The notes below the pieces were generated by a model, which was given only the letters and a program-made list of their open reading frames with translations, ran no database searches and was not told the origin of the DNA. DNA of 64,000 nt from Candidatus Omnitrophota bacterium (lineage in GTDB: Bacteria; Omnitrophota; Gorgyraeia; Duberdicusellales; 4484-171). The position numbers and the translations under genes were made by a program. The stretch spans positions 15,091 to 79,090 of the forward strand of contig JAHKAJ010000015.1 of assembly GCA_018826075.1 (NCBI GenBank). Reading direction: 5' to 3'. Shown here in pieces: positions 2,577 to 21,600 of the stretch; position 1 is the stretch's first letter, and every line of letters begins with the position of its first letter.

Positions 2577-2603
2577 GCCTCTCCTTGATTTGCAACCAAA
2601 TAG

Positions 2604-3563
2604 TTAATAATTTGTTGCTGCTTTTCGCAACCGGCCTAAAACTGCAGCGTCAGAGATTAGATCATCGTAAAACTGTCGGTAGTTCTTTTTCTTGATACTT
2701 ATTAATACCTCTCTTAAAAATAACTCAAAACAATCAGCCTTGGCTATCCTTAAAGTCCTTTTTTGGTTTTTTTCGACAATTTTGAACTCATTCTCCATCT
2801 CAACCGGAATTGTAAAAATTCGCTCTATATCTACAAATGTATCTTTACCTAAAAAACTTATGGAATTGCGGTATTCAGTATCAAAACCAAAATGCCCAAC
2901 CATTGACCTTCCTTTAGAGTAAATAGCTAACAAACTAAAAGAAACCTCAAGGTTATCTTTGCTGTCGCGGTTATTTATAGTGCAATACATTTCTTTCGGC
3001 TCCTCGCCAAAAAATAACCTTCCCGGACTAACAGCGTAAGGCCCAAGATCATAAAAAGCTCCTCCGCCTAAAGACCGGCTATATCTAAAATTATCATGAG
3101 CCAGTGGCGGAAAAGAAAAAGAAACAATCAAACGTTGAGGCTCCGTTTTGTTAGCCGAAAAAATATCTTTGGCCATTTTAATTTGAGGATGATAAGCATA
3201 AACCGTAGCTTCAGCCAAACATAGATTGCTCTTTCTTGCTAAATTAACCAATTCTTCGGCTTCCTTCAAACTAGCGAAAGCCGGTTTATCAACTATCACA
3301 TGAAAACCTTTACTAAGTGCAGCTTGAGCTAATTCCTTATGTAAACTATTTACGCTCGATATGTAAACCAAACTAGCCTTACTCTTAGACAAAGCTTGTT
3401 GATAATCATCATAGACATTTCCTCCTAAATCTTTAGGCAAAGTAATTGAAGTTTTAGCCCTATGCGAAGCAAGATCGATGCCGCTAATATCACTAATCGC
3501 CTGTATTGCCGGAATAACTCTTCTTTTTGCAATCTCTGAATAGCTCAAAATTAATACTTGCAT
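2604..3563 (-). CDS. Gfo/Idh/MocA-family oxidoreductase, putatively the NDP-hexose 3-ketoreductase of the 2,6-dideoxy pathway.
   Basis: N-terminal Rossmann fold (MQVLILSYSEIAKRRVIPAI). The track's start at 3611 is a TTG; the ATG at 3561..3563 is the more plausible start. The gene sits immediately downstream of the 2,3-dehydratase. Confidence 0.55.
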   Translation of the reverse strand: MQVLILSYSEIAKRRVIPAIQAISDISGIDLASHRAKTSITLPKDLGGNVYDDYQQALSKSKASLVYISSVNSLHKELAQAALSKGFHVIVDKPAFASLKEAEELVNLARKSNLCLAEATVYAYHPQIKMAKDIFSANKTEPQRLIVSFSFPPLAHDNFRYSRSLGGGAFYDLGPYAVSPGRLFFGEEPKEMYCTINNRDSKDNLEVSFSLLAIYSKGRSMVGHFGFDTEYRNSISFLGKDTFVDIERIFTIPVEMENEFKIVEKNQKRTLRIAKADCFELFLREVLISIKKKNYRQFYDDLISDAAVLGRLRKAATNY

Positions 3564-3579
3564 ATCTTTAACTAAAAAT

Positions 3580-4872
3580 TTACCGGCAAGATAAAAGAGT
3601 TCTTGCCTCAACGCTTACTAAACTGGTCTGGCCAGTAAAATCTAGAAGTTGATCAAAGGTCATCCAGATATAATTAGAAGGTATTTCTAATTCTTCGTTC
3701 TCTCCAACTTCGATTATCATATATCTGTTTTGAGAATGGTAAAAACGTCCTCCTTCTTCCGAAAAAATAACTGAAGATTTAATCTGCTCCGGCGTTGCCT
3801 TAATAAATAACTCTGCAAAAGGAGGCAATTGGCCGCTTTTAAGTCTTTGTTCCGGATCAGAATAAGATACCGTAGGTGCCATTTCGCAAGTATTAATATA
3901 GCCGGGCTCAACTTTAGCCTGGACCAAAGCATGTAAAACACCCTTTATTCTTTTGGTCAGAAACCCCACCATTCCAATATTGGACGGCTTCAATAAAGGT
4001 TGAGACCAGCTTCTGACTTCGCGACCTTCAACCTTAACCGAAACAGCGATAATTGAAAAAAAGGTTCTTGATTCATGACTAATCTGCCAATCATCGATAT
4101 GCCAACCACCCCGGACATCTTTCAAAGCAATACTTTCAGTTTGACACTTATATTTGCTTCTTAATCCCTGGATCCAACTGGCTATCTGCGATTTAGTATA
4201 AATGCCATCACCTTCTTGAGCGGTTAAAGGAAAACAAGAGAGCACCGACCTAGCATCCATATTTACAAAATTATCAATAGCCAAAAGCTCCTTTATCTGC
4301 CTCAAAGTTAACCAATAGAAATTAGGCGGTAAATTTATTTCTTGATCAATCTCAACAATTACGTTGCGATTTCGTTTGCGTAAGAATTTTGCTCCTTGCT
4401 CAGACTGCAGTTGGTCAACTAAAATTTTAGCCTTGCTACCATTAAGAAAAAAATCTAAAAATAAAGGCTGTTTCCCTTTATGAACTTGAGTATAATTACT
4501 TTTAGTAGCTTGGACCGTAGGTGATAATTGAAAAATATTAACATTCCCCGGTTCAACTTTAGCCTGCATAAGAAAATATCTGACCCCGCCGATTATTTTA
4601 GTAACAATACCTAAGATACCGATTTCCGGTTGATTTATGATCGGCTGCTCCCAAAATCCCGGGTATCGAAAATTGGTTTCAATCCTCAAGCCCTCAATTC
4701 TAAAAAATTTACCTGAAGAATGAACGATATTTCCTGAATCTTCTTCAAAGTGCCAACTATCTAATTGGCTAAATGGAATCTGCTTAACTGAAAAATTGGT
4801 TAAGTTTTTTAACCGCTCGAATTCTGACTTAAGGCCCTTAACGCTTATAAAATTTCTATCTTTTATTCTCAT
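3580..4872 (-). CDS. NDP-hexose 2,3-dehydratase (two tandem Hexose_dehydrat/Nudix-like repeats).
   Basis: Internal duplication is visible in the protein: ...YFLMQAKVEPGNVNIFQLSPTVQATKSNY... and ...HALVQAKVEPGYINTCEMAPTVSYSD.... The 430-aa two-repeat architecture is typical of EvaA/TylX3/OleV-type enzymes. Confidence 0.6.
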   Translation of the reverse strand: MRIKDRNFISVKGLKSEFERLKNLTNFSVKQIPFSQLDSWHFEEDSGNIVHSSGKFFRIEGLRIETNFRYPGFWEQPIINQPEIGILGIVTKIIGGVRYFLMQAKVEPGNVNIFQLSPTVQATKSNYTQVHKGKQPLFLDFFLNGSKAKILVDQLQSEQGAKFLRKRNRNVIVEIDQEINLPPNFYWLTLRQIKELLAIDNFVNMDARSVLSCFPLTAQEGDGIYTKSQIASWIQGLRSKYKCQTESIALKDVRGGWHIDDWQISHESRTFFSIIAVSVKVEGREVRSWSQPLLKPSNIGMVGFLTKRIKGVLHALVQAKVEPGYINTCEMAPTVSYSDPEQRLKSGQLPPFAELFIKATPEQIKSSVIFSEEGGRFYHSQNRYMIIEVGENEELEIPSNYIWMTFDQLLDFTGQTSLVSVEARTLLSCR

Positions 4873-4901: not shown

Positions 4902-6821
4902 TTAAGAGATATCACTGCTCACCCCTTTACCCATTAATTCATTCAAGTAAGCAAAGGTTACCCCAAACAAAGACCAGAAAGGTATGGCATAATAAGGCAA
5001 CTCTAAAATAACCGCAAAATTAGCATACATCAATATGCTGATTATGGCTCCTGACAACAATATTCCGTTAATTGATCTTAAACATATCGACCTTTTTATT
5101 ATTTTAATTAAAAAAATAACCATAAACACAATATATAGCATCCCTACTATTCCTGCTCTATACACAAGGGCTAAGTAAGAGTTATGGAAGGCGATCCAAC
5201 CGTCGCGACCCCATTCCCCCCCGGCGAAACCAGCTATCTCAATGCCGCGAGAACGAAAAGGTTTACCAAAATCAAAACCTAAAAGAGGCTTTTCTTTTAT
5301 AAGCTGGATTAAAGCATCTCTCCAAATTAAAATCCTAAAGATAGAATTGCCACGGGCGTCAGATGCTTTCCTTACTCTAAGTTTATACCGCGTATCACGG
5401 ATATTCAAGAATGGATCTTCGATTTTATTCCGAAACTCCTGAATTGCTTTAGTTAATTCAACGTCTTCAGTTGCGATTTCCAACTCATTTAAAAGCGCTA
5501 GGTTTTGTTCTATCTCATTTTGGGCCTTTTTTACCAAAACCCAAACATCTTCAGTCTCTCTAAACGACTCTGTTTTCTCGGATATTTTCCGAAGCCTTTC
5601 TAAAACCGCATTAACCCTAACCACCTTTTCCTCTAATATCCCTAAGGTAGCTTGGATTTCTGTTGCTATCGGAGAAGATAATGCTTTTTTAGCTTTTGGA
5701 ATTTGAGCTAAATCTGTATTTACCGGTTGCGGGCTGAGTTTTTCTAAAGAATCAATGACGCCAATCGTGCTGGCTTGGATTTCTTTTAATCTAGATTCAG
5801 GTTCCTTGTTTTTTTCTGCTGTCGGATTTACTTCAACTGGCTTTTCCTCAATTACCGAAACCGGCAATGCAGCTTTTCGTTTAATTTGTGGGTTATAAAG
5901 AACTGCTTTGATCTCTTTAGGGTTATAATCATTTTCAGTGTCGCTGACAAGCTCTTTAGACTCTAAATATTGCTTCTTTAGCTTACCTAAATCTATGAGA
6001 GATTTTATTTCCTGAACATATCCCAACTTAAATACAGCTAGCAGCAAAAAAAACATACAAAGCCCCAATATAAAAACTTTAGTTCTTGCCTTAGCCTTTA
6101 AAATAAAAATTATCGCTACGCATATAAATATCGCAGCTGTAACATTACCTACCAGAATTGCCCGCGAATCTCGCAAAAATGCACCATAGGGAACTAACAG
6201 AAATAATAATAAAAAAAGAGCGTATTTGATACTTCTGAGGGAGTAAGCTTTTATTAATACAAAGGCTAAAATAAAAACAGTAAATAAAAAAAACGGCTGG
6301 ATTCGAAAAAATAATTTAACTATGTTTATCCTCAATGAAATAATCAAAAGAAGTGATAGAATTAAAATGGCGTTTTGACTAAAAAACTTTTTCTTATAGA
6401 AAGTATAGCCGAATATTGCAAACAGAGGATAATAAAATAATGCTGCATGCCTAAAAGCTAAAGGCCCCCATTTAGAGGGCCCTAAATACCCCCAAAAAGC
6501 TTTTGCCGCCACAAAGATGAAATAAAAAAACAATGAATAATGCCAAGCTTTTAGTTTTGGAGGAAACTTTTTCCATTTCATGGACAAGACAATTAAACAT
6601 AAAAAAATTAATATTTCACCGATAAATATAGGAAAATCTAAAAAAGAAAACTGAATATGGCATTCGGCAAATTCACGCCTAAACAAAAGATAGCCAAAAG
6701 AAATTAATCCCATGAGAAATAGACCTATAGCCTCTAAGCGACAACTCTTGTCTACGCCAAAACGGTTAAATATTCTACCTAAATAATTAGATATACCGCT
6801 AGTAATGGTTCGATGACTCAT
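4902..6821 (-). CDS. Polytopic membrane protein with a Wzy_C domain (O-antigen ligase / polymerase / O-oligosaccharyltransferase family) and a roughly 240-aa coiled-coil insert.
   Basis: About eight N-terminal TM helices, then a charged coiled-coil region, then RGNSIFRILIWRD...GWIAFHNSYL (the Wzy_C R...H...NSYL signature) and further TM helices. Confidence 0.55.
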   Translation of the reverse strand: MSHRTITSGISNYLGRIFNRFGVDKSCRLEAIGLFLMGLISFGYLLFRREFAECHIQFSFLDFPIFIGEILIFLCLIVLSMKWKKFPPKLKAWHYSLFFYFIFVAAKAFWGYLGPSKWGPLAFRHAALFYYPLFAIFGYTFYKKKFFSQNAILILSLLLIISLRINIVKLFFRIQPFFLFTVFILAFVLIKAYSLRSIKYALFLLLFLLVPYGAFLRDSRAILVGNVTAAIFICVAIIFILKAKARTKVFILGLCMFFLLLAVFKLGYVQEIKSLIDLGKLKKQYLESKELVSDTENDYNPKEIKAVLYNPQIKRKAALPVSVIEEKPVEVNPTAEKNKEPESRLKEIQASTIGVIDSLEKLSPQPVNTDLAQIPKAKKALSSPIATEIQATLGILEEKVVRVNAVLERLRKISEKTESFRETEDVWVLVKKAQNEIEQNLALLNELEIATEDVELTKAIQEFRNKIEDPFLNIRDTRYKLRVRKASDARGNSIFRILIWRDALIQLIKEKPLLGFDFGKPFRSRGIEIAGFAGGEWGRDGWIAFHNSYLALVYRAGIVGMLYIVFMVIFLIKIIKRSICLRSINGILLSGAIISILMYANFAVILELPYYAIPFWSLFGVTFAYLNELMGKGVSSDIS

Positions 6822-7782
6822 TTACCCCTCTGGATCTTTTTCCTAAAGCCCTAATCCAGGTGCCTTGAGGATTATTGGTAACTGTACCGTAATACCACTG
6901 ATAAAATCTTTTTGAAATACATACCGGGATAAAAAAACGCAACTTATAGAATAGGTTTTCCAGTATTTTAAAAATCACTCTATTTTTACCGCGGCCGGCC
7001 GGAGAGCCTTGCATATCCCTTCCATAACAAGCAATCTGCTGAAGGCTTAAACCACTTTTTTCAAAAAGCATTTGCAGGCTCAGCTTATTGAAAAAAGTTA
7101 AATGCGGGAATACGTCCAGTTTGAACAGATAATCTTGATTAGGCAAATCAGCAAAAATGTATCCCCCTTCAGCTAATTTCTCTACTGCTTTTTCCAGCAT
7201 ATCCTTAGGCCGATAAAGGTGTTCTAAAACATTTGATAAAATAATAATATCAAATTGCCCTTCTATTGCCTCTAAACTGTCTTCAACTTTCAATTTAATC
7301 TTAGGATAACCTTTATGCCAAGTTTTTTTGAGTGACTCCCTTAACACATTGTCTTTTTCGACAATGTAATAACTGTCTAAACATATTTCCCGATCTTTAG
7401 CTGCAACCATTCCTAAAAACCCCTGCCCGGCCCCGATATCAAGCATAGATATGGCTTTAGTAATTTTCTTAATAACCGGCTTAATAATTCTCCAACGGGC
7501 AGTAGACAAAGCATAATGGCCAGGGAATTTCCTCGGCAACAAGACCTCTACTCGAGAATTATTCCAATAACCGCTCTGGGAATAAAATTCAAGCAACTGC
7601 TCATCGCTCAATTTGGGAAAAGCTACTCCAACACCGCAACTACTACAAAAAAGGATAGAGTGCGGCTTGGAAAGAAAACTATTCCTAGATAAATCCGTAG
7701 GGTACTTTACAGTTCTAAAACCAGAATCTTCCAAAGACCGAGAACAGACAGGACAAATCAATAATGTTTTCTCGATTATCAT
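6799..7782 (-). CDS. Class I SAM-dependent methyltransferase with an N-terminal Zn ribbon.
   Basis: CPVCSRSL...CSSCGVGVAF Zn ribbon and LDIGAGQGF motif I. Confidence 0.6.
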   Translation of the reverse strand: MIIEKTLLICPVCSRSLEDSGFRTVKYPTDLSRNSFLSKPHSILFCSSCGVGVAFPKLSDEQLLEFYSQSGYWNNSRVEVLLPRKFPGHYALSTARWRIIKPVIKKITKAISMLDIGAGQGFLGMVAAKDREICLDSYYIVEKDNVLRESLKKTWHKGYPKIKLKVEDSLEAIEGQFDIIILSNVLEHLYRPKDMLEKAVEKLAEGGYIFADLPNQDYLFKLDVFPHLTFFNKLSLQMLFEKSGLSLQQIACYGRDMQGSPAGRGKNRVIFKILENLFYKLRFFIPVCISKRFYQWYYGTVTNNPQGTWIRALGKRSRGVNESSNHY

Positions 7783-8705
7783 GATCTAAAAAAATTAATC
7801 AGGTTTTTTGTCGCTTCCACTTCCATTGCCAAACGAGATTCTCTGGTTAAAGTTCCCACATGGGGAGTTAAAATTACATTATCCAGTTCAAAAAGCTTTC
7901 CTCGATAGGGCTCCTTAGAAAAAACATCCAAGGCTGCCGCAGACAAATACTTGCTGGATAAAGCATCGTATAGAGCATTTTCATCAATAAATTTACCCCG
8001 GGAAGTATTGATTACAGCAGCCCCTCTTTTCATCAAGGATATTTTTTCTCTATCCAGCTTAAAAGAGTCAGCAGCATTATCAGAAAGATGGATAGATATA
8101 ATATCAACGACACTCAATAATTCCCGCACCGGTAAAACCTTCAAGTTATTGCTTTTAGCCCAGGCATCATCAATAACCATATCTGCCCCGTAAAGATCAG
8201 CCTCTAATCTATTTAATAATTCAACTACCCGGCGGCCTATCCTGCCTAAACCTAATATCCCCACTTTTGCTCCGCTCAATAAATTTCCAGATACCTTTTG
8301 CCATTTTCCCGACTTCAAAAGAGCGGTATGAAAACTCAAATTACGCAATAAATCAAAAAACATGGCAATGGTTAGTTCGGCCACCGGCTGGATTACCACG
8401 CTGGGAGTATTAAAAACAGCGATACCTTTTTGTTTAGCTTTCGATAGAGCTATATTATCTAAGCCTACGCCGCAACGTGAGATACAGCGAAGCTGCGGCA
8501 AATGGTCAATAACGTAATCGTCATAAGGTTCAAGGCCGGCGATTGCGCCTTCGGAATCTTTACCCATTTTGATTATTTCTTCCTGGACTAACCTTCGGCC
8601 TAAGGGATTAATAAAATACTCAAAACCATTTTGTTCAAGCAGATTCAGCGATTCTTTTCCGTGTTCAGCAAAAGTCGAAGCTGAAATAAATATTTTCTTA
8701 CTCAT
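7779..8705 (-). CDS. D-isomer-specific 2-hydroxyacid dehydrogenase family (PGDH/glycerate dehydrogenase-like).
   Basis: GILGLGRIGRRV NAD-binding motif and a catalytic-domain layout typical of the family. Confidence 0.7.
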   Translation of the reverse strand: MSKKIFISASTFAEHGKESLNLLEQNGFEYFINPLGRRLVQEEIIKMGKDSEGAIAGLEPYDDYVIDHLPQLRCISRCGVGLDNIALSKAKQKGIAVFNTPSVVIQPVAELTIAMFFDLLRNLSFHTALLKSGKWQKVSGNLLSGAKVGILGLGRIGRRVVELLNRLEADLYGADMVIDDAWAKSNNLKVLPVRELLSVVDIISIHLSDNAADSFKLDREKISLMKRGAAVINTSRGKFIDENALYDALSSKYLSAAALDVFSKEPYRGKLFELDNVILTPHVGTLTRESRLAMEVEATKNLINFFRS

Positions 8706-9469
8706 CTTATCTTTTGATAGAATGCCTGCTGAGCAGGGTCCTGAAGCAAAATCTTTTCAACCTCTTCTACATCACTTTCTCTATCTACGGCTACTGTCCG
8801 CTGAGGATAAATAACGCTGTAAATCGGATACCCGTGCTCAAGTATTCTTAAGAAATCTATGGATTCGGCTATTTCCATAGTCGTATGCGGCAAACTAGAA
8901 TATTGCCGTAAAAAAGTTTTGGTAAATGCAGAGATCCCTGTCTGGCGGTATGCCGGGCAATTATTTTTTACCCGCATATAGGGAACAGGCAGACGGGAAT
9001 AATACATAATATAGCCTCTATTGTTTAAAACCGCCTTAACCACGTCAGTATTATTTAAATCGCCTTCCTCGCTAATAACCGAAACCAAGTTAACGCATTC
9101 GGCCTTTTTATCCCTGACTATTGGCCGGACAACCAGATCAAAAGGGCCGGGATCAATAAGCGGCTCATCTCCTGAAATAATAACCACGATATCAACATCT
9201 AATTTTTCAGCTGCCTCTTCGATGCGGTCAGTGCAGCGCTGATGAGTATCAGCGGTCATAACCGCTTTCCCGCCATAGCGTTCAACAGTTTCTTTTATCT
9301 CATTATCGCAAGTAGCCACATAGACATCATTAAAAATTTCGGACAGAAGAGCCCGCCGGCGGACATGTTCAATCATCGGCAAACCCAATATATCCACCAG
9401 GGGTTTTCCGGGAAAACGCGAAGAAGCCATCCGAGCAGGAATAACTGCTGCTATCTTTTTTTTATTCAT
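8702..9469 (-). CDS. KdsB-like 3-deoxy-ulosonate cytidylyltransferase (CTP_transf_3 family).
   Basis: IAAVIPARMASSRFPGKPLVDILGLPMIEHV closely resembles the KdsB N-terminus; length is 255 aa. Confidence 0.65.
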   Translation of the reverse strand: MNKKKIAAVIPARMASSRFPGKPLVDILGLPMIEHVRRRALLSEIFNDVYVATCDNEIKETVERYGGKAVMTADTHQRCTDRIEEAAEKLDVDIVVIISGDEPLIDPGPFDLVVRPIVRDKKAECVNLVSVISEEGDLNNTDVVKAVLNNRGYIMYYSRLPVPYMRVKNNCPAYRQTGISAFTKTFLRQYSSLPHTTMEIAESIDFLRILEHGYPIYSVIYPQRTVAVDRESDVEEVEKILLQDPAQQAFYQKIR

Positions 9470-9491
9470 ATCAAAATTGCTTCATACATAA

Positions 9492-10106
9492 TTAAACGTT
9501 ACTTTTGCGCGAACCGATTTTTATTGCAGGAACCCCACCGACAATATCAAAATCGGCTACATCTTTAGTTACTACAGCCCCTGCACCCACAACAGCCCCC
9601 TTACCAACTACAACATTAGGTAGGATTACGGCATTTGCCCCTATCCAAACATCTTCTTTTATGACTATTTTTCCTTCTTGATGGCCTTGATCTCTTATAG
9701 GAATATTAATATCTTTATATCTATGCCCACTGGCTCGCATAACTACATTTGGGCCCACCAAGACATTACTTTCAATAGTGATCTCTCCTCCTATATCGGC
9801 ATTTATCATAACATTACAATTTAGACCTACTCTATTTCCTATCTTTATACTTGAATCATTACTTTTTGATTCGGCAAAAATACAACTATGCGGAGATATG
9901 CACACCTCATCACCAAACTCAATATTTTTAAACCCTTTAATAGATACGCCCTGTAAAATATACACTTTCTTACCGCAGGTCCTAAATCTTTTTTTATAAA
10001 TAGAATACCGTAAATGACAGCCCAAAATTCCTGGAATTTCTGACAATAGGCTATCGCTAAGTAGCCTAACTTCTCTTAAAATTTTGTTTAGAATACTTAC
10101 TCCCAA
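9492..10106 (-). CDS. Hexapeptide-repeat (left-handed beta-helix) acyl/acetyltransferase.
   Basis: Repeated [LIV]G-x-x-x-x hexapeptides (IGNRVGLNCNVMINADIGGEITIESNVLVGPNVV...). Confidence 0.65.
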   Translation of the reverse strand: MGVSILNKILREVRLLSDSLLSEIPGILGCHLRYSIYKKRFRTCGKKVYILQGVSIKGFKNIEFGDEVCISPHSCIFAESKSNDSSIKIGNRVGLNCNVMINADIGGEITIESNVLVGPNVVMRASGHRYKDINIPIRDQGHQEGKIVIKEDVWIGANAVILPNVVVGKGAVVGAGAVVTKDVADFDIVGGVPAIKIGSRKSNV

Positions 10107-10109
10107 TAT

Positions 10110-10769
10110 TCACTTATTTTGTCTATTCTTCCTTTCCTCTTCAGTGATATGATTTTTGATACCGATGAAATCTTTATGTACCGGAATATTTGCATCTCTA
10201 AAAGACTTGTTGCTATCCCGTCCGACAAAAGGTACGCCTGCTTCTTGTGCAGCCAGATAATCCTCGAAAGTATCTCCGATGAATAAAATCTCATCTTTAA
10301 GAATGCATTCGGTATCTATAACATCTTTAATAACCTTTATTTTAGTCCAAGGATAAGCATATATTTTTTTGAAATAGTTCCTTATACCTCTAAAATTAAT
10401 AACCTCATCTAACTCCTGGCTGGGTGTAATTGATGCCAGGTAAAGAGATACTTTTTTATAATAATAATCTAAGAAATCTTTTGCCCCATCAACATAAGGG
10501 CATTTTTTAATTGCACTAAGCACATAACTAGAAAATTTCTCGCTTAGCGTCTGCGCAACGGCCATATCATAACTGCGGCCTAAAATGTTTTCGGTGATAT
10601 ATTTAAATTTTTCATAGCGGATAGTAGCATTATGAGAAAGATGATAGTGCATTATTTCATCTAAATTCTGAGAATAGTCTTTAAAGAGCTCCTTGAAGGC
10701 TGAATCTTTTATGCCCACTGATTCAACAATGGTTCCATCGAAGTCTAAGATAATTGTTTTAAATCTCAT
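10110..10769 (-). CDS. HAD-superfamily hydrolase/phosphatase.
   Basis: ILDFDGTIVES (the DxDGT motif I). Confidence 0.65.
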   Translation of the reverse strand: MRFKTIILDFDGTIVESVGIKDSAFKELFKDYSQNLDEIMHYHLSHNATIRYEKFKYITENILGRSYDMAVAQTLSEKFSSYVLSAIKKCPYVDGAKDFLDYYYKKVSLYLASITPSQELDEVINFRGIRNYFKKIYAYPWTKIKVIKDVIDTECILKDEILFIGDTFEDYLAAQEAGVPFVGRDSNKSFRDANIPVHKDFIGIKNHITEEERKNRQNK

Positions 10770-11575
10770 TGGGTAGAAACTCGTTCTTTTTTTCTGATCT
10801 GATCAGTTATATTTCTCATGCGTTCGCTCCATTTCCATAATAAGAATATATCCGAAGCTAATACCACAAAGGTATAGCCCAATTTAAACTTATCCTCTAT
10901 AGCTTTCATGTCCGGATCGACTATGTGAGTGCCGCAAGCCTTATTGTGACGACGGCAAGAATCAATTACACGTATTGCCGCCTGGTTAACCTTTGGATGG
11001 TCCAATTGACCAGGAATACCCAACGACCCAGAAATATCATAAGGACCAACCATCACTCCATCTATTTGCTCAAAACTCAAAATCTGATCAATATTTTCTA
11101 CTCCCTTGACAGTCTCGATCTGCATAATCAAAGAAGATGAATCATTCCATGCTGACACATACTCATCAAAATCAAAACCATATCCTTGAGCCCGGGCAAC
11201 GCCAAAACTCCGGCTTCCCTCAGGTGGATACTTACACCAAGGGATTATCTTCTCTGCTTCTTCAGGCAAAGACACCATTGGAACCATTAACCCGTCTGCC
11301 CCTGAGTCCAGAAGACGCTTGATCATTTCCTGATTATGAGTAGCAATCCTAGGAAGGCACAAAGTGCCATTCACCTGAGAAGCGGTTATAATTCTCTGTG
11401 TCTGCTCCTGGCTTATGGTGCTATGCTCAATATCAACTCCTACGAAATCTACACCAATCCTGGAAAAAATCTCGGTTATCGAAGGATGACCCAGTGAAGT
11501 CCAAGCGCCAAAAACCGGTTTACGCTGTCTTAACTTCTGTTTAAATTCGTAACGTCTCTGATTTAATTCTTTCAT
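10766..11575 (-). CDS. HpcH/HpaI-family (class II, pyruvate-dependent) aldolase.
   Basis: Overall similarity to 2-keto-3-deoxy acid aldolases (GAWTSLGHPSITEIFSRIGVDFVGVDIEH...). Confidence 0.55.
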   Translation of the reverse strand: MKELNQRRYEFKQKLRQRKPVFGAWTSLGHPSITEIFSRIGVDFVGVDIEHSTISQEQTQRIITASQVNGTLCLPRIATHNQEMIKRLLDSGADGLMVPMVSLPEEAEKIIPWCKYPPEGSRSFGVARAQGYGFDFDEYVSAWNDSSSLIMQIETVKGVENIDQILSFEQIDGVMVGPYDISGSLGIPGQLDHPKVNQAAIRVIDSCRRHNKACGTHIVDPDMKAIEDKFKLGYTFVVLASDIFLLWKWSERMRNITDQIRKKERVSTQ

Positions 11576-12257
11576 CTTTTAACAATTCCTCCTCGGCTTT
11601 AGCAGCATCATCGAGAAACATTTTTACGGTTTCCTTAGTGTAGGGATGAATGATCATGCCTTTTAGTAGATTTGGTAAAACAGTTACAATATGAGCTCCG
11701 GCATGTAACCATTCGACAACATTCAACACCTCTCGTGTCGAACCTAATATTATTTTTGACTTCAATTTGAAATCCTCAAGCAATTTAGACAATTTCTTTA
11801 TTTCTTCAACAACGTTATAACCCATATTATTTACTCTTCCGCCAAACATAGAAACATAGGTCGCTCCGGCCATGGCAGCCAAGAAACACTGTTGGGCACT
11901 CATCATCGCCGTAACATTCACCCGAATATTGTGTCTTGTCTCCAACTCATGCACAACTTCTAGGTTATCTAACTCGCCTTCCGGACCGTGAACTGTAATT
12001 TTTACTACGATATTCTCAGCCCAGCTGGAAAACTCCTTAGCTTGATCAAACATCTTTTGACGATCATTAGTGGTAACTTCCACCGACAAAGGATAAGGAG
12101 CAATAACCCTGGCGATGTCTCGAGAACAATCTTTTAAAACTTTTTTAACTCCGGACCGATACAGAATCGTCGGATTAGTGGTCACTCCGCGTATTATCCC
12201 CAGTTTGTGAAACTGTTCTACTTCTTCAACTTTTCCGGTATCCAAAAATATAGCCAT
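11541..12257 (-). CDS. Transaldolase / fructose-6-phosphate aldolase family.
   Basis: AIFLDTGKVEEVEQ...GVTTNPTIL signature. A strong SD (AAGGAGGA) lies 7 nt upstream of the ATG. Confidence 0.7.
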   Translation of the reverse strand: MAIFLDTGKVEEVEQFHKLGIIRGVTTNPTILYRSGVKKVLKDCSRDIARVIAPYPLSVEVTTNDRQKMFDQAKEFSSWAENIVVKITVHGPEGELDNLEVVHELETRHNIRVNVTAMMSAQQCFLAAMAGATYVSMFGGRVNNMGYNVVEEIKKLSKLLEDFKLKSKIILGSTREVLNVVEWLHAGAHIVTVLPNLLKGMIIHPYTKETVKMFLDDAAKAEEELLKDERIKSETLRI

Positions 12258-12308
12258 AAAAATTCCTCCTTACTAATTGTTAATAACTATTTTGTTTTCA
12301 AAAACTTT

Positions 12309-12917
12309 TCATTTATTGTGTGCTAATGTACTTTCCCATTTATTTCCTGTCTGCATGACTCTGGGGTCAGAAACAATCAAATGCCAGATAACTCCCTGAA
12401 AAGCTTCGGTTTGAGGAGTAATCGTGTCGGGATTAACCACTGGTATAGTCAAACAGGCATCTGCTAATTTAGCGGTGTAACCGCCATCGTGGCCGACTAC
12501 GCCGACTATTTTAGCCTTGCAGCCTTTTGCATAATCAAGGGCATCGACAATATTAACACTTATATTTCTTTCCCGGTCACCGCCACCTACTGAAAAAACA
12601 AACAGGCAGTCTTTAGTATTCAAATTGCTGCCTTTAAGCCACTGGCTAAAAACCGTATGCCAGCCTTCGTCGTTAGTTCGGGCTGTCAGCTCAGAAATAT
12701 TATCTACCGGCGTATAAGCTTCAAAGCCGGCTATTTTTCTAAAATCGTTGACCGCGTGAGAACAATTTCCAGCGCTGCCGCCTACGCCGATAAAAAATAA
12801 ACGCCCTTTCTGGCTGCGGACTTTGAGCAAAACCTCTATCATCTTTTCGATTTGGCTTCGGTCTATCTTTTCGATAATAGCTGCGGCTTCTTTCAAATAC
12901 TGTTCTGGGTATAACAT
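12309..12917 (-). CDS. SIS-domain sugar-phosphate isomerase (GmhA-like sedoheptulose-7-P isomerase).
   Basis: FFIGVGGSAGNCSHAVNDF; 202 aa; single SIS domain. Confidence 0.7.
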   Translation of the reverse strand: MLYPEQYLKEAAAIIEKIDRSQIEKMIEVLLKVRSQKGRLFFIGVGGSAGNCSHAVNDFRKIAGFEAYTPVDNISELTARTNDEGWHTVFSQWLKGSNLNTKDCLFVFSVGGGDRERNISVNIVDALDYAKGCKAKIVGVVGHDGGYTAKLADACLTIPVVNPDTITPQTEAFQGVIWHLIVSDPRVMQTGNKWESTLAHNK

Positions 12918-12921
12918 CTGA

Positions 12922-13944
12922 CTATTTCTCCTTTTTCCTTAATAATATCCGGGCATAAGAACTGAGTAGATTGGCTTGTAAAAACTGTTGAAAAGAACGC
13001 TTAACATTCTCATCCCTATTTTCAACTATATATTTTACAAATCTAGGAAGCTTTACACTCTTGTTTTGTTGAGCTGTTTTGGCCACTATTGCCAAATCTA
13101 ACACCCCTGGCGTACTGAATTCAATACACTCAAAACCACGCCTTTCAAATAGAACCTTCAAACCTTCTACCGTAAACAGGTTCATTCTATCCGGCGGACA
13201 TAAATTTTCGGCCTTATCCCAAAGAATCTGTAAATCAAAACCGGAAATCAAAACTGTGGTTATGAAACAAAGCCCGCCCGACCTCAACATCTTATAGACT
13301 TTATCCAACAAAAGGTCAACATCAGAAGCCCGGTCAATGACTTCAAATAAGCAGACAACATCAGCTTCGTTACACAGATAAAGGTCTGCGATTTTGGAAT
13401 TTATAACTTTTATTTCCGAACTGAGCTTAAGGCTGTCTAGATCGAGAAAAGGATTTATTAATATTTTCTGCTCAAACTGCTCGGCTCCCAATATTTCTTC
13501 AATATAGTTATAGTGAGCGGTATTAATATCGACCAATTTCTTAGCCTGCGGAAAATATTCGGCAGTTGCGCCGTTTATCCAATCAAAACGCGGCTTGATT
13601 ATTTTCTCTTTCCTCTTGGAAGCTGTTACCTTAGAAAGTTCTTCCCGCCAGAATATCCGCGCTTGAGAATTGCGGTAATAATCGATTAAGGCCGCTTCAC
13701 TGGGCCGCGGCGACAGATAAACCGTTTTACAACTCTCACATTCTAAATAAGTTAAGCCCAATTTTACAAAAGCTTCTTTCTGGCCTCTGCTCTGGCAACC
13801 CGGACAAAGGCAAGGGGTTAGAATTTCCTCATTTACCAAAAAAGAAAAGACATCTTTTTCGATAAGCTTTAAATAAGTATTGAATAATTCTGAAGGCTTT
13901 AAATCAATTTCATTATATTCATCAAAGATTACAATATTTCTCAT
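12922..13944 (-). CDS. Zn-ribbon methyltransferase, possibly a TylC3/NovU-like sugar C-methyltransferase.
   Basis: CLCPGCQSRGQK...CESCKTVYLSP Zn-binding domain followed by an MTase-like region. The start is refined to the ATG at 13942..13944, which is preceded by GGGAGGA. Confidence 0.4.
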   Translation of the reverse strand: MRNIVIFDEYNEIDLKPSELFNTYLKLIEKDVFSFLVNEEILTPCLCPGCQSRGQKEAFVKLGLTYLECESCKTVYLSPRPSEAALIDYYRNSQARIFWREELSKVTASKRKEKIIKPRFDWINGATAEYFPQAKKLVDINTAHYNYIEEILGAEQFEQKILINPFLDLDSLKLSSEIKVINSKIADLYLCNEADVVCLFEVIDRASDVDLLLDKVYKMLRSGGLCFITTVLISGFDLQILWDKAENLCPPDRMNLFTVEGLKVLFERRGFECIEFSTPGVLDLAIVAKTAQQNKSVKLPRFVKYIVENRDENVKRSFQQFLQANLLSSYARILLRKKEK

Positions 13945-14962
13945 CGCCAATCCTCCCTTCGGCCTTGCCGTCTTGATAGGCTTTATCAATGATTTCCATA
14001 ACTGATAAGGCATCACTCGATGAGCTGCTGACAACCGGGCTATCGCTGTCAATACACTTTATAAATTCTTCTACCTCCAGCTCCCATGATTGATCACGAT
14101 CAAAATAAGTTATTTCCTCAGCCGGATTGCCGACCGCGCTAGCTTCATCTTCGAATTGCCGCCGGCCGACAACTAATTTTTCTCTTCCGTAGCTGCCTGA
14201 TTTAGACAAAAGGCCTTCGATTAAAATGTAGCCTTGTTCGAATATGATATTCAGTTGAAAGGCGTGTTTCCAAAGCGTAGCTGAGGAATGCAAAAAAGCA
14301 TTCTGGCCTCTTTGGTTTTGTAAAATAACATAAGCATTGTCTTCGAGATCGAACTTCCAGAATCTATTGCTGAGAAAACACTTTATTTTCTGGAAATCAC
14401 CGCAAAAATAACGAAAAAGATCCAACATGTGTATGCCTTGATCAAGTAATATGCCGCCGCCGGATAAATCTCTATTGTTTCGCCATGATTTTGCAAAGTT
14501 CAATCCTCCCGATTTACCATATACACCCCGCAAACCTATAATTTCACCAAGCCTTTTGCTGTCAACGATGACTTTAGCTTTCATTACCGCCGGATGAAAA
14601 CGGTGGTTAAAACCGAACATCAGTTTGGTTTTGGCGCCTTCTGCGGCGATTATGCTCTGAATATCCTCTAAATTTCTTCCCGGCGGTTTCTCACAAAAAA
14701 CGTGTTTACCTCTGTTCATGCTTTCAATACAAATCTTAGGCGAATAGCTGTTAGGCGTACAAACAAAGATTATTTCCGGATCTCTCCGGATAAGTTCTTG
14801 GAATGATTTAAATACCGGGCAGCCGTCAACGGCTTTGGCTGCTTCCGGATCGGGATCAACGATCCCGATTAACTTTAAACGCGGATTATTTTCGATAACC
14901 AATTTGCGTATTTTACCCATATAACCATAACCGACTATGCCAACCTTATAAATCTTATTCAT
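13922..14962 (-). CDS. Gfo/Idh/MocA-family NAD(P) oxidoreductase.
   Basis: KVGIVGYGYMGKIR Rossmann motif. Confidence 0.7.
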   Translation of the reverse strand: MNKIYKVGIVGYGYMGKIRKLVIENNPRLKLIGIVDPDPEAAKAVDGCPVFKSFQELIRRDPEIIFVCTPNSYSPKICIESMNRGKHVFCEKPPGRNLEDIQSIIAAEGAKTKLMFGFNHRFHPAVMKAKVIVDSKRLGEIIGLRGVYGKSGGLNFAKSWRNNRDLSGGGILLDQGIHMLDLFRYFCGDFQKIKCFLSNRFWKFDLEDNAYVILQNQRGQNAFLHSSATLWKHAFQLNIIFEQGYILIEGLLSKSGSYGREKLVVGRRQFEDEASAVGNPAEEITYFDRDQSWELEVEEFIKCIDSDSPVVSSSSSDALSVMEIIDKAYQDGKAEGRIGDEKYCNL

Positions 14963-14971
14963 AATATATCC

Positions 14972-16819
14972 TCATTCAACGAACTTAGCCAAAGTTTCTT
15001 TGCTGGGCGGATGAAAATAGCTAGCCAGATAAGCCTTAGCTTTATCCCTTTGCAGATTAAAATCTTCCTGGCTTAAATTGTCTATCTCATCTAGTTTTGC
15101 TTTTAAAGAATCTTCTTTATGGACTACCCATTTTAGATGGCGGCAATCAAACAAAGGATCATAACTTAAAATTTCTCCGCGGTCAAAATGGATAACCGGT
15201 TTACCGATACTTAAGGCTTCCAGAGAAACAGTGGTTCCCCAATAGATAACAATATCGGCCCAAATAATATCGTCATAGAGATAATTTCCGTTGGAAACGC
15301 TGACGTTAGGCATCCGGCTCAAATCATAAGCAAACCTTCTTTTAAAATAAGGCCAGGGAACCATGGGATGAGTCCTTATTTTTATATGATAGCCGTTACG
15401 GCCCTGCATCTGGCTTAAAACATAATCCACTATACAGTGGACATCGATATTGCCTTCCAAAGCCACCAAAATATTCTTCAAACGCTTTCTTGGCTGAAAA
15501 GGTTTATCAAAAAGATATTCAAAACGCAAACCACAGGTAGCCTCAATAAAGCCCGGCTCATATTCACCATACCTCTCCATAATCTTCTTGGTTTCAACCC
15601 CAACAGTCAATATTTTATCCGGCAAAGGAGATAATGACCTATCGTGACCGACAACAAACATATTCACTGAAGATTGAGGAACAACCGTATGTTGATAGCC
15701 GATAATCCGGCTAGCCGGAGAATATCGCCTTAAAGCTAATATACACATCCGTTCCCAAGGTTTATTCTCATAAGTTAGAAGGAACTTTTCAACAGCAACT
15801 TTCTTAATCAGATTCTTAGTGCTCCAATAATGCAAAAAATGATAAAATCGGACGCCCTTAAAGGTCCTTTTTAATTCAGCGTTGATTATATCGGAAACAT
15901 CGTATCCGAAAAATAAAACCTTCCGATTAATCCTGATTTTAGTAAATAAAAACTCTATGGCCGCCTTTACAATACTCGGCAAAGTTAAGAGAGCTTCTAC
16001 CGGCAAAATAATCCGCTGCTGGCATTGGCTAATTTTTTTTAGGCACTGTTTATAATCACCTAAAATGCAGGCGTAAATCAAACTCTTTTGCTTACCCTTT
16101 AAAAACTCCGGCAAACTACCAAAAAAAACATCGCGGTAACTACCGTCTTTTAAAAACGAATGGTTATAAATAAAAGTTTTAATAACATAATAGGACTTTT
16201 TAGGATTAAGCTCTTTTTTTATCCTTGAGCCTAATTGTTTTCTGGCATATAAACTACGGCGATAAAACTTTACCGTCTTATATATAACTCCGATGGTTCT
16301 TCGAACAGTTATATATATTGAATCTAACCGCTTCTCGGCCGGATTACCGAAATAATGAAATTGTATATTAACGCTCTTTAAAGTTTTCTTCAGTAACCCG
16401 ATTGTGCTAATTGCCGGGCCGACAATAATTAACTGCAGATAGTCTTCATCTTTGGCAACTTTTGTCATAGTCAAAAACTGATAAAGAAACTCTGGAACTT
16501 TTGAGGCAAATCTGTCTTTGGAGGCTATATCGGTAGCCCACCATACCTTAGAAGAACTAAACTCTTGGGAACAACTCGCAATAGCTTTGTTGTATTCACG
16601 CAGGAATGCATCACGATAAAACTCATCGTGTTCGGACTTAGGGATTTTTTTAAAATTCTTAGCTTCGAGAAGATCCTCAGCCTTTTTGCTGACAGTTTTC
16701 CACAAAAGATATTTCCTGCCTTTTTGCTCTTTAGACGAAAGTGTAGCGAGATAGCTGATTAGCCGTCTTTCGGTTTTAAAAACAAGCGCTGATTTTATAA
16801 ATAGAGTTTCTTTATTCAT
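14972..16819 (-). CDS. Large GT-B-like protein, possibly a KpsC/KpsS (Capsule_synth)-type ulosonic-acid transferase.
   Basis: C-terminal ...DIVIYWGTTVSLEALSIGKPVIHF... resembles the Capsule_synth/TagF-type nucleotide-sugar binding motif. 615 aa. Confidence 0.3.
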   Translation of the reverse strand: MNKETLFIKSALVFKTERRLISYLATLSSKEQKGRKYLLWKTVSKKAEDLLEAKNFKKIPKSEHDEFYRDAFLREYNKAIASCSQEFSSSKVWWATDIASKDRFASKVPEFLYQFLTMTKVAKDEDYLQLIIVGPAISTIGLLKKTLKSVNIQFHYFGNPAEKRLDSIYITVRRTIGVIYKTVKFYRRSLYARKQLGSRIKKELNPKKSYYVIKTFIYNHSFLKDGSYRDVFFGSLPEFLKGKQKSLIYACILGDYKQCLKKISQCQQRIILPVEALLTLPSIVKAAIEFLFTKIRINRKVLFFGYDVSDIINAELKRTFKGVRFYHFLHYWSTKNLIKKVAVEKFLLTYENKPWERMCILALRRYSPASRIIGYQHTVVPQSSVNMFVVGHDRSLSPLPDKILTVGVETKKIMERYGEYEPGFIEATCGLRFEYLFDKPFQPRKRLKNILVALEGNIDVHCIVDYVLSQMQGRNGYHIKIRTHPMVPWPYFKRRFAYDLSRMPNVSVSNGNYLYDDIIWADIVIYWGTTVSLEALSIGKPVIHFDRGEILSYDPLFDCRHLKWVVHKEDSLKAKLDEIDNLSQEDFNLQRDKAKAYLASYFHPPSKETLAKFVE

Positions 16820-18991: not shown

Positions 18992-19007
18992 AATACTCTG
19001 CAATATT

Positions 19008-19769: not shown

Positions 19770-19788
19770 TTTCGCACCTCCGAATCTG

Positions 19789-20928: not shown

Positions 20929-20937
20929 AATAACATC

Positions 20938-21600
20938 CTAAATTACAAAAAGGCCTGTGTTGACAATTAACTCTGCAACCTTAAAGTCTTCGGGTGTGTC
21001 AATGTCATGACCTTCAAAATGATCAATAAACTTTATATAAGAATTTTGAGAAATTCTCTGACCGGTTTTTTCAAAAATTTCCCTTTTAAATACGTACAAA
21101 CTAGATTGTTCAACGATCACCGGATCTATATCCTGAGTACGGGGAGTTGAAACGCCAAGAGAATAATTCAAAGGCTTGCCACCAAACCAACAAAACTTTT
21201 TTACCTGGTAGGCAGTGAAAGCTGAATCATATTCTCCACTGTTGACCTTATCTATACATTCAGCTATAGTCTGTGGCTTCAAGAAAGGTGAGGTAATATG
21301 TAAAAGCACAATCGTATCAGCCTTATCTTTCTTTAAAAACTCAGCTATAATATCTTGTATTTTTGCCTCTTGGCTATCCAGACTCTTGGGCCGCTCTAGA
21401 AACTTATATTTCAAACCATGCTCAATATGCTTGCAAATAGAATCCTCTGAGGCAAATATTACGACTTCATCGATCGAAGGAACTTTATTCATCGCCTTAA
21501 CTGTGTAATTTATTAAAGGAATACCCCCTAATTTTTTTATGTTTTTAAACGGGACTCTTTCGCTATTAAGCCTTGACGGTATGAATCCTACTGTCCTCAT
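20938..21600 (-). CDS. Acylneuraminate (nonulosonate) cytidylyltransferase-like (CTP_transf_3 family).
   Basis: VGFIPSRLNSERVPFKNIKKLGGIPLINYT. Confidence 0.6.
   Translation of the reverse strand: MRTVGFIPSRLNSERVPFKNIKKLGGIPLINYTVKAMNKVPSIDEVVIFASEDSICKHIEHGLKYKFLERPKSLDSQEAKIQDIIAEFLKKDKADTIVLLHITSPFLKPQTIAECIDKVNSGEYDSAFTAYQVKKFCWFGGKPLNYSLGVSTPRTQDIDPVIVEQSSLYVFKREIFEKTGQRISQNSYIKFIDHFEGHDIDTPEDFKVAELIVNTGLFVI

Follow-up and report, generated by a model that had tools for sequence, protein, structure and literature searches.

The window analysed here is a stretch of 64 kb (64,000 nucleotides) of a Candidatus Omnitrophota genome, taken from contig JAHKAJ010000015.1 of assembly GCA_018826075.1, and the element in question is a cassette of probable sugar-biosynthesis genes. 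The window contains about 70 genes in a single run, all on the minus strand, with a G+C content of about 38-40%. According to Pfam scans of nearly all its genes it is a giant surface-glycan locus, with rmlACBD-like genes, two nonulosonic-acid pathways of the NeuB type, several aminotransferases, three B12-radical-SAM enzymes, an ABC exporter, glycosyltransferases and a Wzy-like protein. Seven minus-strand open reading frames (ORFs) at 7779-12917 are tightly packed, with overlaps of 4 bases or gaps of at most about 50 bases. A previous interpretation, made from the letters alone and referred to below as the sequence-only reading, had assigned to them a GmhA-like isomerase, a transaldolase or aldolase, a HpcH/HpaI pyruvate aldolase, a HAD phosphatase, a hexapeptide acyltransferase, a KdsB-like cytidylyltransferase and a D-2-hydroxyacid dehydrogenase. 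The ORFs and their Pfam and NCBIfam matches agree with this composition and with the positions. The limits had been drawn too narrowly, since the conserved module continues beyond 7779-12917 on both sides: the functional unit in the window extends over about 6799-16819, perhaps to 19036, and adds to the seven genes a GFO/IDH/MocA oxidoreductase, two methyltransferases and a GT-B protein of 615 amino acids (aa).

The gene at 10766-11575 (minus strand) encodes a class II, metal-dependent pyruvate aldolase of the HpcH/HpaI family (HpcH_HpaI PF03328, 2.2e-30). Both the fold and the four catalytic and metal residues of this class are present: H51, R76, E154 and D180 align with H49, R74, E153 and D179 of YfaU, the same residues are found in HpaI and GarL, and all four are invariant in 24 orthologs. 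By this alignment the His corresponds to the general base, the Arg to the residue that stabilises the enolate, and the Glu and Asp to the metal ligands. With these residues kept, the enzyme should act in either direction on the C3-C4 bond of 4-hydroxy-2-oxo acids, by way of a pyruvate enolate bound to Mg; 3-deoxy-2-ulosonic acids belong to this class. The closest characterised relatives are HpaI, YfaU and GarL, and the scores remain below the NCBIfam equivalog cutoffs for HpaI (164 vs 369 bits), GarL (146 vs 407) and RhmA (131 vs 441). A role in the catabolism of aromatic compounds or sugar acids was rejected in view of these scores and of the glycan genes in the neighborhood. With the catabolic aldolases HpaI, GarL and YfaU/RhmA the cassette enzyme shares the fold and the catalytic His, Arg, Glu and Asp; in contrast to HpaI, GarL and RhmA, it forms a subfamily of its own that sits in glycan loci together with a cytidylyltransferase and never in hpa, gar or rhm operons. 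More than 2,000 relatives were found in the database at E < 1e-20. Among the 120 best of them identity is 63-93%, and their lineages include SAR324, Thermodesulfobacteriota, Margulisiibacteriota and Methanoregula, and the exact window sequence is also present on contigs of assemblies GCA_018827925.1 and GCA_018827675.1. The public name of the orthologs is “aldolase/citrate lyase family protein”.

Next to the aldolase gene, at 11541-12257 (minus strand), lies the gene of a short transaldolase of the TalC/MipB type (TAL_FSA, 1.2e-37; best PDB match 3S0C, the transaldolase of T. acidophilum, 8.6e-32). Its nearest relatives are short transaldolases of archaea and bacteria. The alignment with 3S0C shows that D6, N28, S58, E60, K86, T110, F132, R135, S167 and R169 are kept. 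The protein is thus a class I enzyme with a Schiff-base lysine (K86), and Arg135, Ser167 and Arg169 are the phosphate-binding residues. The sequence-only reading had labelled it transaldolase/FSA, that is, transaldolase or fructose-6-phosphate aldolase (FSA), and had described the block as built around class II aldolases in the plural. In FSA, Tyr takes the position of the transaldolase Phe132 and Gln that of the transaldolase Glu. Across 41 orthologs from the module, position 132 is Phe in 35 and Leu in 6, never Tyr, and the catalytic and phosphate-binding residues are intact. An aldolase of the FSA type can therefore be ruled out by the transaldolase-type residues of the window protein and its 41 orthologs; only the first half of the label holds, and the plural was mistaken, since the cassette has a single class II aldolase.

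The adjacent gene, at 12309-12917 (minus strand), encodes a GmhA-like isomerase of 202 aa with a SIS_2 domain only and no CBS pair. Its sole named NCBIfam relatives are GmhA proteins (47.7 bits vs a cutoff of 209) and its PDB matches are phosphoheptose isomerases only (E ~1e-8). The His of the GGSxxxxxH motif is kept, and an Asp is found at the position of the catalytic Glu of GmhA. Orthologs are 55-74% identical across phyla. A short transaldolase, a SIS isomerase of the GmhA type and a phosphatase inside a sugar cluster are also found in lincomycin biosynthesis, the one precedent for this pairing that has been established by experiment. In that pathway LmbR and LmbN convert ribose-5-phosphate and a C3 unit from fructose-6-phosphate or sedoheptulose-7-phosphate into octulose-8-phosphate and then octose-8-phosphate, after which the phosphatase LmbK acts (PMC5854111; PMC4351081). 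The lincomycin route continues with a kinase and GDP activation of the octose itself, whereas the cassette has an aldolase and a transferase for cytidine monophosphate (CMP).

The latter enzyme is encoded at 8702-9469 (minus strand) and is a cytidylyltransferase resembling KdsB and KpsU (CTP_transf_3; best PDB match KpsU, 1GQ9, 3.9e-45). It passes the KdsB subfamily models NF009905 (271 vs 255 bits) and NF003952 (245 vs 193), falls below the kdsB equivalogs TIGR00466 (146.5 vs 155.2) and NF003948, and scores 40 bits for PseF. By its NCBIfam score it would be named “3-deoxy-manno-octulosonate cytidylyltransferase”. The CTP-binding N-terminus, the GDEP motif and the C-terminal VD motif are kept. 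The motifs (K/R)H(V/L)GIYxYR, ExLEQLR and HxSGT(D/E)R, which are common to KdsB and KpsU of E. coli, read RQtGIsAF, ESvDfLR and tHeRCTDR in the window enzyme, with H changed to Q in (K/R)HxGIY, EQLR to DfLR and SGT to RCT. These comparisons place the enzyme firmly in the KdsB/KpsU clade, the known substrates of which are ulosonic acids; it looks like a distinct KdsB subfamily, and its substrate need not be Kdo (3-deoxy-manno-octulosonic acid).

Between the aldolase and the cytidylyltransferase genes lie two others. The gene at 10110-10769 (minus strand) encodes a HAD-IA phosphatase (HAD_2 by Pfam and NCBIfam) different in type from KdsC. Its 4-base overlap with the aldolase gene, and its place next to that gene nearly everywhere in the loci compared below, fit dephosphorylation of the aldol product. 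The gene at 9492-10106 (minus strand) encodes a hexapeptide O-acyltransferase of the WcaF/LacA/Maa type (Hexapep), an accessory tailoring gene. After the cytidylyltransferase gene, and overlapping it by 4 bases, comes that of a D-2-hydroxyacid dehydrogenase (7779-8705, minus strand; 2-Hacid_dh) to which phosphoglycerate dehydrogenases are closest (e.g. 1WWK, 2e-47); we refer to it as the PGDH-like dehydrogenase. At the other end of the module, a GFO/IDH/MocA NAD(P) sugar oxidoreductase (GFO in what follows) is encoded at 13922-14962 (minus strand; Pfam), with inositol dehydrogenases, DgpA and glucose-fructose oxidoreductase as PDB relatives; its orthologs in related loci are 47-73% identical. 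The Methyltransf_23 methyltransferase (12922-14052, minus strand) has its probable start near 13944, giving 340 aa, and it is called with this length on the identical contigs. A second class I SAM methyltransferase (6799-7782, minus strand; Pfam) is an accessory tailoring gene, homologs of which adjoin the module in about 16 loci.

The sequence-only reading had also noted that a synthase dependent on phosphoenolpyruvate (PEP) is missing from the seven-gene stretch. The Pfam scan found neither a DAHP_synth_1 (KdsA) nor a NeuB domain within 7779-12917, no DAHP_synth_1 domain was present in any scanned ORF of the window, and tblastn of the whole window with a KdsA-like protein gave no match. The observation thus stands for the flagged stretch, though the window holds two NeuB genes elsewhere (32039-33022 and 41772-42632). 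These are 20-30 kb upstream, each next to a CTP_transf_3 gene of its own. A dependence of the cassette on them, or a side-chain role for the nonulosonic acids, was rejected since NeuB is rarely nearby in other loci.

We compared the neighborhoods of the aldolase gene, with 10-kb flanks, in 80 loci from species-level genomes (tblastn and ORF clustering). The dominant architecture, which we call type A and to which the window belongs, consists of GFO, Methyltransf_23, the SIS isomerase, the transaldolase, the aldolase, the HAD phosphatase, in most cases two short-chain dehydrogenases/reductases (SDR), the KdsB-like enzyme and the PGDH-like dehydrogenase. Frequent flanks are the 615-aa protein or a remote homolog, a second methyltransferase, a hexapeptide acyltransferase and a GT2 glycosyltransferase. 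Type-A counts refer to 37 loci in which the aldolase is at least 55% identical and 8 kb or more of flanking sequence is available to its left and to its right, and they depend on this identity threshold; co-occurrence was counted by tblastn because the simple ORF caller mis-called genes in high-GC loci. GFO was found in 35 of the 37 complete type-A loci, the SIS isomerase, the HAD phosphatase and Methyltransf_23 in 34 each, the KdsB-like enzyme in 30, the transaldolase and the SDR pair in 29 each, and the PGDH-like dehydrogenase in at least 23, in contrast to NeuB in 2 and KdsA in 1. The adjacency of transaldolase and isomerase is conserved in 29-34 of these loci. In the wider set of about 80 related loci, the aldolase and the KdsB-like enzyme are the most constant pair, the PGDH-like gene follows the KdsB-like one in 44 loci, and NeuB lies within 10 kb of the aldolase in 3. 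The first SDR of the module has its nearest relatives among dehydrogenases of sugar acids (KduD, mannonate oxidoreductase and gluconate 5-dehydrogenase). The window itself is a minority form without the two SDR genes, like L023 (Eubacteriales) and L028 (Aminicenantes); its acyltransferase sits where most loci have them, and homologs of this acyltransferase (29-55% identity) occur in 11 of the 37 loci at varying positions. A few loci, L028 among them, keep the isomerase without the transaldolase, which fits a ketose phosphate that is also available from central metabolism, e.g. sedoheptulose-7-phosphate.

The carriers belong to Omnitrophota, Planctomycetes, Chloroflexota, Elusimicrobia, Desulfobacterota, SAR324, Bdellovibrionota, Alpha- and Gammaproteobacteria (including the cultured Kiloniella laminariae and Halopseudomonas aestusnigri), Eubacteriales, Acidobacteriota, a bacterium of the candidate phyla radiation (CPR) and Methanomicrobia. 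Across bacteria and archaea the type-A aldolases are 57-72% identical, and the gene order is conserved in Methanoregula, Margulisiibacteriota, Thermodesulfobacteriota, Omnitrophota, Planctomycetes, Chloroflexota, Eubacteriales, Kiloniella and Halopseudomonas. The cassette is common to at least a dozen bacterial phyla and to some archaea, and the same gene order in dozens of unrelated genomes means that the arrangement is far beyond chance. Supply of Kdo for lipid A was ruled out by the presence of the cassette in archaea, Chloroflexota, Eubacteriales and CPR bacteria, because archaea and monoderms have no lipid A.

Other architectures share part of this module. In type B, found in marine Flavobacteriia and in two deltaproteobacterial metagenome-assembled genomes (MAGs) (L053, L058, L060, L062, L063, L066, L069 and L081), the order is a KdsA-like protein, a stand-alone CBS-pair protein, the HpcH aldolase, two SDRs, the KdsB-like enzyme and a homolog of the GT-B protein; transaldolase, SIS isomerase, GFO, HAD and PGDH-like dehydrogenase are missing. 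The type-B aldolase is 49-55% identical to that of the window. The KdsA-like protein passes both KDO8P-synthase equivalog cutoffs and carries a KDCRSS motif at the place where canonical KdsA has KANRSS. Its identity across loci is 68-94% in spite of a G+C content that ranges from 0.25 to 0.44, which indicates that it travels with the block. The type-B KdsB-like enzymes retain EQxR and have an Asn at the Asp position of the C-terminal VD motif. Type C (L074-L077, with L074-L076 in Methanoperedens) contains the aldolase, a methyltransferase, the KdsB-like enzyme, another methyltransferase, a B12-radical SAM enzyme, the PGDH-like dehydrogenase, an NAD-dependent epimerase/dehydratase, a HAD phosphatase and a ‘cyclase’ family protein. 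The distant loci L074-L077, L082 and L088 keep the aldolase and the KdsB-like enzyme without transaldolase and SIS isomerase, and L073 has GFO, transaldolase, isomerase, aldolase and the KdsB-like enzyme, the PGDH-like dehydrogenase and HAD being absent.

In most loci the module comes with the 615-aa protein (14972-16819, minus strand) or with c13, a remote homolog of it. The 615-aa protein is a candidate transferase for the CMP-sugar on account of its predicted GT-B fold and an R-x-H-P motif. It matches no Pfam or CAZy-type model, and every homolog is labelled ‘hypothetical’, including a 100% identical entry from a Candidatus Omnitrophica MAG. The AlphaFold (AF2) model, built with 39 homologs as input, has a pLDDT of 91.7, and a Foldseek comparison with the PDB retrieved generic GT-B enzymes (CalG2, MurG, WbnH and UDP-GlcNAc 2-epimerases, E ~1e-8), with no sialyl- or Kdo-transferase among the top 50 matches. 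R482, H484 and P485 of the motif are invariant in 34 of 34 sequences, the remote homologs of type B included. In sialyltransferases the histidine of the ‘HP’ motif protonates the CMP leaving group, and it is kept in the Kdo transferase WbbB (PMC9587256). Two Rossmann-like domains and an invariant His-Pro in the C-terminal domain liken the protein to the HP-motif GT-B transferases, the sialyltransferases of GT38, GT52 and GT80 and the beta-Kdo transferases WbbB (GT99) and KpsC (GT107); it differs from them in an extra N-terminal region, and its HP motif is a putative equivalent of theirs by sequence position only.

From these data we consider that the cassette may build a CMP-activated 3-deoxy-2-ulosonic acid without a PEP-dependent synthase, for a surface glycan and by way of a dedicated transferase, and that it may be a self-contained, horizontally mobile unit of which the seven flagged genes are the core; our confidence in this stands at about the midpoint. 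Domain identities, catalytic residues, synteny and co-occurrence are observations here, and to them we add substrates, an order of steps, a chain length and tailoring roles that we infer. The transaldolase would move a dihydroxyacetone unit from fructose-6-phosphate or sedoheptulose-7-phosphate to an aldose phosphate, giving sedoheptulose-7-phosphate or, as with LmbR, octulose-8-phosphate, and the GmhA-like isomerase would turn this ketose phosphate into an aldose phosphate, as GmhA and LmbN do. The class II aldolase would then add the pyruvate enolate to the aldehyde, forming a 3-deoxy-2-ulosonic acid omega-phosphate of 9-11 carbons, from which the adjacent HAD phosphatase would take off the omega-phosphate before the KdsB-like enzyme couples the acid to CMP. 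GFO, the two methyltransferases, the O-acyltransferase and the PGDH-like enzyme might tailor the sugar or supply a donor, as might the two sugar-acid SDRs in other genomes, and the HP-motif GT-B protein would transfer the CMP-activated sugar. By analogy, the acid is probably C9-C11 and not Kdo (C8) or Dha (C7), because the transaldolase and the GmhA-like isomerase point to a C6-C8 aldose phosphate as acceptor (hexose, heptose or octose, leading to 9, 10 or 11 carbons). A CMP-activated ulosonic acid made by a non-canonical aldolase route was already proposed in the sequence-only reading, and we retain this part; the Kdo- or Dha-like identity that it suggested is not retained, given the transaldolase, the GmhA-like isomerase and the altered motifs of the cytidylyltransferase.

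Three observations support the aldolase as the synthase. The gene order (SIS isomerase and transaldolase, HpcH, HAD, the SDR pair where present, KdsB-like) mirrors the order of the reactions; the aldolase and KdsB-like pair persists in architectures that have neither transaldolase nor SIS isomerase; and, with KdsA and NeuB nearly absent from type A, no C-C bond-forming enzyme except the aldolase and the transaldolase is at hand there to feed the cytidylyltransferase. The intact catalytic residues of the aldolase and of the transaldolase, the precedent of LmbR, LmbN and LmbK, the place of the cytidylyltransferase in the KdsB/KpsU clade and the HP motif of the co-inherited GT-B family also speak for the scheme. 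An aldolase-based, non-canonical route to a CMP-activated 2-ulosonic acid is the most economical reading. On the other side, several points weigh against this scheme. The strictly conserved GFO and the PGDH-like dehydrogenase have no necessary role in it, and type B has a genuine KdsA beside the aldolase, which is not needed there as a synthase, so that a replacement of KdsA by the aldolase cannot be a general rule. The HpcH-family enzymes characterised so far serve catabolism, and condensation with PEP has a more favourable equilibrium than an aldol reaction. Furthermore, the isomerase is only distantly GmhA-like, with its catalytic Glu replaced by Asp, and the identity of the acceptor and the chain length are drawn purely from analogy.

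The two dehydrogenases would find a place in an oxidative route, which we regard as unlikely while giving it real weight. The transaldolase and isomerase would supply an octose or heptose phosphate, GFO would oxidise C1 to give the aldonate phosphate and the PGDH-like enzyme C2, and the resulting 3-hydroxy (Ko-like) 2-ulosonic acid phosphate would pass to HAD and the KdsB-like enzyme; the aldolase would re-equilibrate the C3-C4 bond by retro-aldol and aldol reaction, which amounts to epimerisation at C4, and the SDR pair would epimerise another centre. This gives a chemically natural role to every type-A-specific enzyme (transaldolase, SIS isomerase, GFO, PGDH-like dehydrogenase and HAD), agrees with the use of phosphorylated D-2-hydroxy acids by PGDH-type enzymes and with the sugar-acid relatives of the first SDR, and explains why type B, with a real KdsA, lacks exactly those five enzymes and keeps the aldolase, both SDRs and the KdsB-like enzyme: if the transaldolase acts like LmbR, both front ends would lead to a C8 2-ulosonic acid 8-phosphate. 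However, L073 has neither the PGDH-like dehydrogenase nor HAD, type C has both of them and nothing that would supply aldonate phosphate, the genes are not arranged in the order of these reactions, and the best-conserved and most constant enzyme is left with a marginal job. In addition, we know of no HpcH-family enzyme that acts as a biosynthetic epimerase. A rather improbable variant keeps the aldolase as the synthase and changes its donor. The PGDH-like enzyme would convert 3-phosphoglycerate into phosphohydroxypyruvate, HAD would release hydroxypyruvate, and the aldolase would join it to an aldose phosphate to give a 3-hydroxy 2-ulosonic acid. The nearest relatives of the dehydrogenase are indeed 3-phosphoglycerate dehydrogenases, it occurs together with HAD in types A and C and both are missing in type B, and the structural relatives of the aldolase include hydroxy-ketoacid aldolases of the HpcH family (6R62 and others), which are users of hydroxypyruvate. 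Nevertheless, the dehydrogenase gene is coupled to that of the cytidylyltransferase and not to that of the aldolase, a second phosphatase would be required for the terminal phosphate of the sugar, and the KdsA of type B is not accounted for.

The scores of the cytidylyltransferase for the two NCBIfam KdsB subfamily models, together with the true KdsA of type B, would suit ordinary CMP-Kdo for a glycan other than lipopolysaccharide. The SIS protein would then be an arabinose-5-phosphate isomerase, the aldolase a pyruvate-dependent Kdo-8-phosphate aldolase and HAD an analogue of KdsC, and isomerase, C-C former, phosphatase and CMP-transferase would match KdsD, KdsA, KdsC and KdsB one to one. We hold this to be quite improbable: a conserved transaldolase is pointless for arabinose-5-phosphate, the SIS protein resembles GmhA only and has no KdsD CBS pair, extra oxidoreductases and methyltransferases are conserved with the module, and the cytidylyltransferase misses the kdsB equivalog and has three altered motifs, whereas the type-B enzymes keep EQxR. 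The presence of two NeuB pathways and many tailoring enzymes in the window also brings up the idea that the genes do not form one pathway. The aldolase, the dehydrogenase and the methyltransferases might produce a 3-deoxy-aldonic acid or a hydroxy acid with which the nonulosonic acids of the window are substituted, or the genes might be a chance juxtaposition or a catabolic remnant, considering that D-2-hydroxyacid dehydrogenases reduce 2-oxo acids and that HpcH aldolases are typically catabolic. We give this hardly any credence: NeuB is found near the aldolase in so few of the loci, the KdsB-like gene is the most constant neighbor of the aldolase, no acyl-activating enzyme and no aromatic or sugar-acid catabolic genes are present, and synteny over more than 12 phyla excludes chance.

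The cassette can be compared with two known types of pathway. With the Kdo pathway (KdsD, KdsA, KdsC and KdsB/KpsU) it shares the logic of an isomerase, a C3-adding C-C former, a phosphatase and a cytidylyltransferase, the last being a member of the KdsB/KpsU clade at the subfamily level with its three motifs altered. Unlike that pathway, it has a class II pyruvate aldolase in place of DAHP_synth_1, a GmhA-like isomerase without CBS domains and a phosphatase of the HAD-IA type, it adds a transaldolase, GFO, methyltransferases and a PGDH-like dehydrogenase, and it occurs in archaea and monoderms. The NeuB and Kdn pathways, with their Kdn-9-phosphate or Neu5Ac-9-phosphate phosphatase and NeuA-type synthetase, have in common with our scheme the class of product (a CMP-3-deoxy-2-ulosonic acid with at least 9 carbons), the destination in surface glycans and a phosphatase after the condensation; the module differs in having no NeuB, aminotransferase or N-acetyltransferase, and its cytidylyltransferase is KdsB-like and not NeuA- or PseF-like. 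With no KdsA or NeuB, no isomerase of the KdsD type and no phosphatase of the KdsC type in the module, the cassette belongs to neither.

All the characterised CMP-ulosonic acids that we know of, those of Kdo, Kdn and the sialic, legionaminic and pseudaminic acids, depend on a synthase of the KdsA or NeuB type that uses PEP. Full-text literature searches on HpcH/HpaI, transaldolase, KdsB, ulosonic, capsule, O-antigen and Treponema flagellin glycan topics found no description of the cassette, and neither a preprint on Maf and Kdo in flagellin glycosylation nor the SugarBase preprint concerns it. The latter, from 2026, gives the first mass-spectrometric evidence of CMP-activated ulosonic acids with more than 9 carbons, which are N-acylated, in Magnetospirillum; this makes longer-chain sugars plausible, though it is not linked to the cassette. 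We take the cassette to be an uncharacterised way to a CMP-ulosonic acid, probably independent of PEP and coupled with a candidate new family of transferases. A stronger version can be put forward tentatively, and we think it less probable than its contrary: that this is the first PEP-independent route to an activated ulosonic acid, taking heptose-7-phosphate or octose-8-phosphate to a new C10 or C11 3-deoxy acid with a distinct KdsB subfamily and a new HP-motif GT-B family, and that horizontal transfer has carried it across uncultured bacterial phyla and methanogens. Genome mining for CMP-ulosonic acids relies on KdsA and NeuB as markers, and a cassette with a pyruvate aldolase would escape it; at present its annotation reads “Kdo cytidylyltransferase” next to “aldolase/citrate lyase family protein”. 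The surface glycans of the carriers (Omnitrophota, Planctomycetes, CPR, marine Flavobacteriia and methanogens) are almost unknown. If the proposal is true, microbial glycobiology would gain a new acidic sugar, possibly of longer chain, a biosynthetic logic and a transferase family, and the aldolase and cytidylyltransferase pairs would be useful in the chemo-enzymatic synthesis of sialic-acid analogues.

Other genes close to the cassette should be mentioned. A 737-aa unannotated protein (16823-19036, minus strand) has no Pfam match and is 36-51% identical in 8 loci; it was considered as a paralog of the 615-aa protein, and BLASTP and hhalign showed no relation between the two. On the opposite side, at 4902-6821 (minus strand), lies the gene of a 639-aa Wzy_C-like membrane protein, a polymerase or ligase (Wzy_C 1.1e-5, below the cutoff). 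It was ruled out as the conserved neighbor of about 600 aa, being Wzy_C-like and unrelated to the 615-aa GT-B protein, and with weak homologs in 2 loci only it is not a conserved member of the module; it provides context for a product that enters a surface glycan. Further downstream of the cassette, at 1692-4872 (minus strand), an NDP-hexose 2,3-dehydratase, a GFO-type reductase and an RmlD-like reductase make up a branch for 2,6-dideoxyhexose that the rml genes supply. Just upstream of the cassette, at 19008-21600 (minus strand), there is an odd trio formed by an SDR, a 3-dehydroquinate-synthase-like protein (379 aa) and a short CTP_transf_3 protein (220 aa).

The rest of the window contains several additional features of interest. 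The two pairs of NeuB and CTP_transf_3 genes are located at 30592-34514 and 41041-42632 (minus strand). The first is accompanied by NeuC-like, PglD-like, PtmE-like, dehydratase and aminotransferase genes, as in the legionaminic-acid type, and a B12-binding radical SAM enzyme adjoins its NeuB gene; the latter enzyme is a candidate for making C-methylated nonulosonic acids with a longer backbone, as in the SugarBase preprint. Within the nonulosonic-acid gene set, a HisH-like glutamine amidotransferase and a HisF-like cyclase are encoded at 27206-28776 (minus strand). Such HisH/HisF-like pairs elsewhere accompany amidino or related N-modifications of nonulosonic acids. The region 46850-54516 (minus strand), with a DegT aminotransferase, a B12-radical SAM enzyme, a nucleotidyltransferase, a GHMP kinase, a split transketolase (N- and C-terminal halves in separate genes) and a second B12-radical SAM enzyme, looks like a further unusual sugar pathway with thiamine-dependent C2 transfer. 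At the upstream end of the locus (60352-63024, minus strand) an inositol-monophosphatase/CysQ-like protein and an ATP sulfurylase are encoded, and a 356-aa protein at 21611-22681 gives a weak sulfotransferase-like match; the glycan may be sulfated. Finally, the dTDP-glucose 4,6-dehydratase RmlB (56428-58404, minus strand, 658 aa) has its conserved AAE-(S/T)HVD motif split by an intein of about 335 aa, with junctions between HLAAE and SIPEDI at one end and between VVCHN and THVDNSI at the other, and with LAGLIDADG-like blocks inside.

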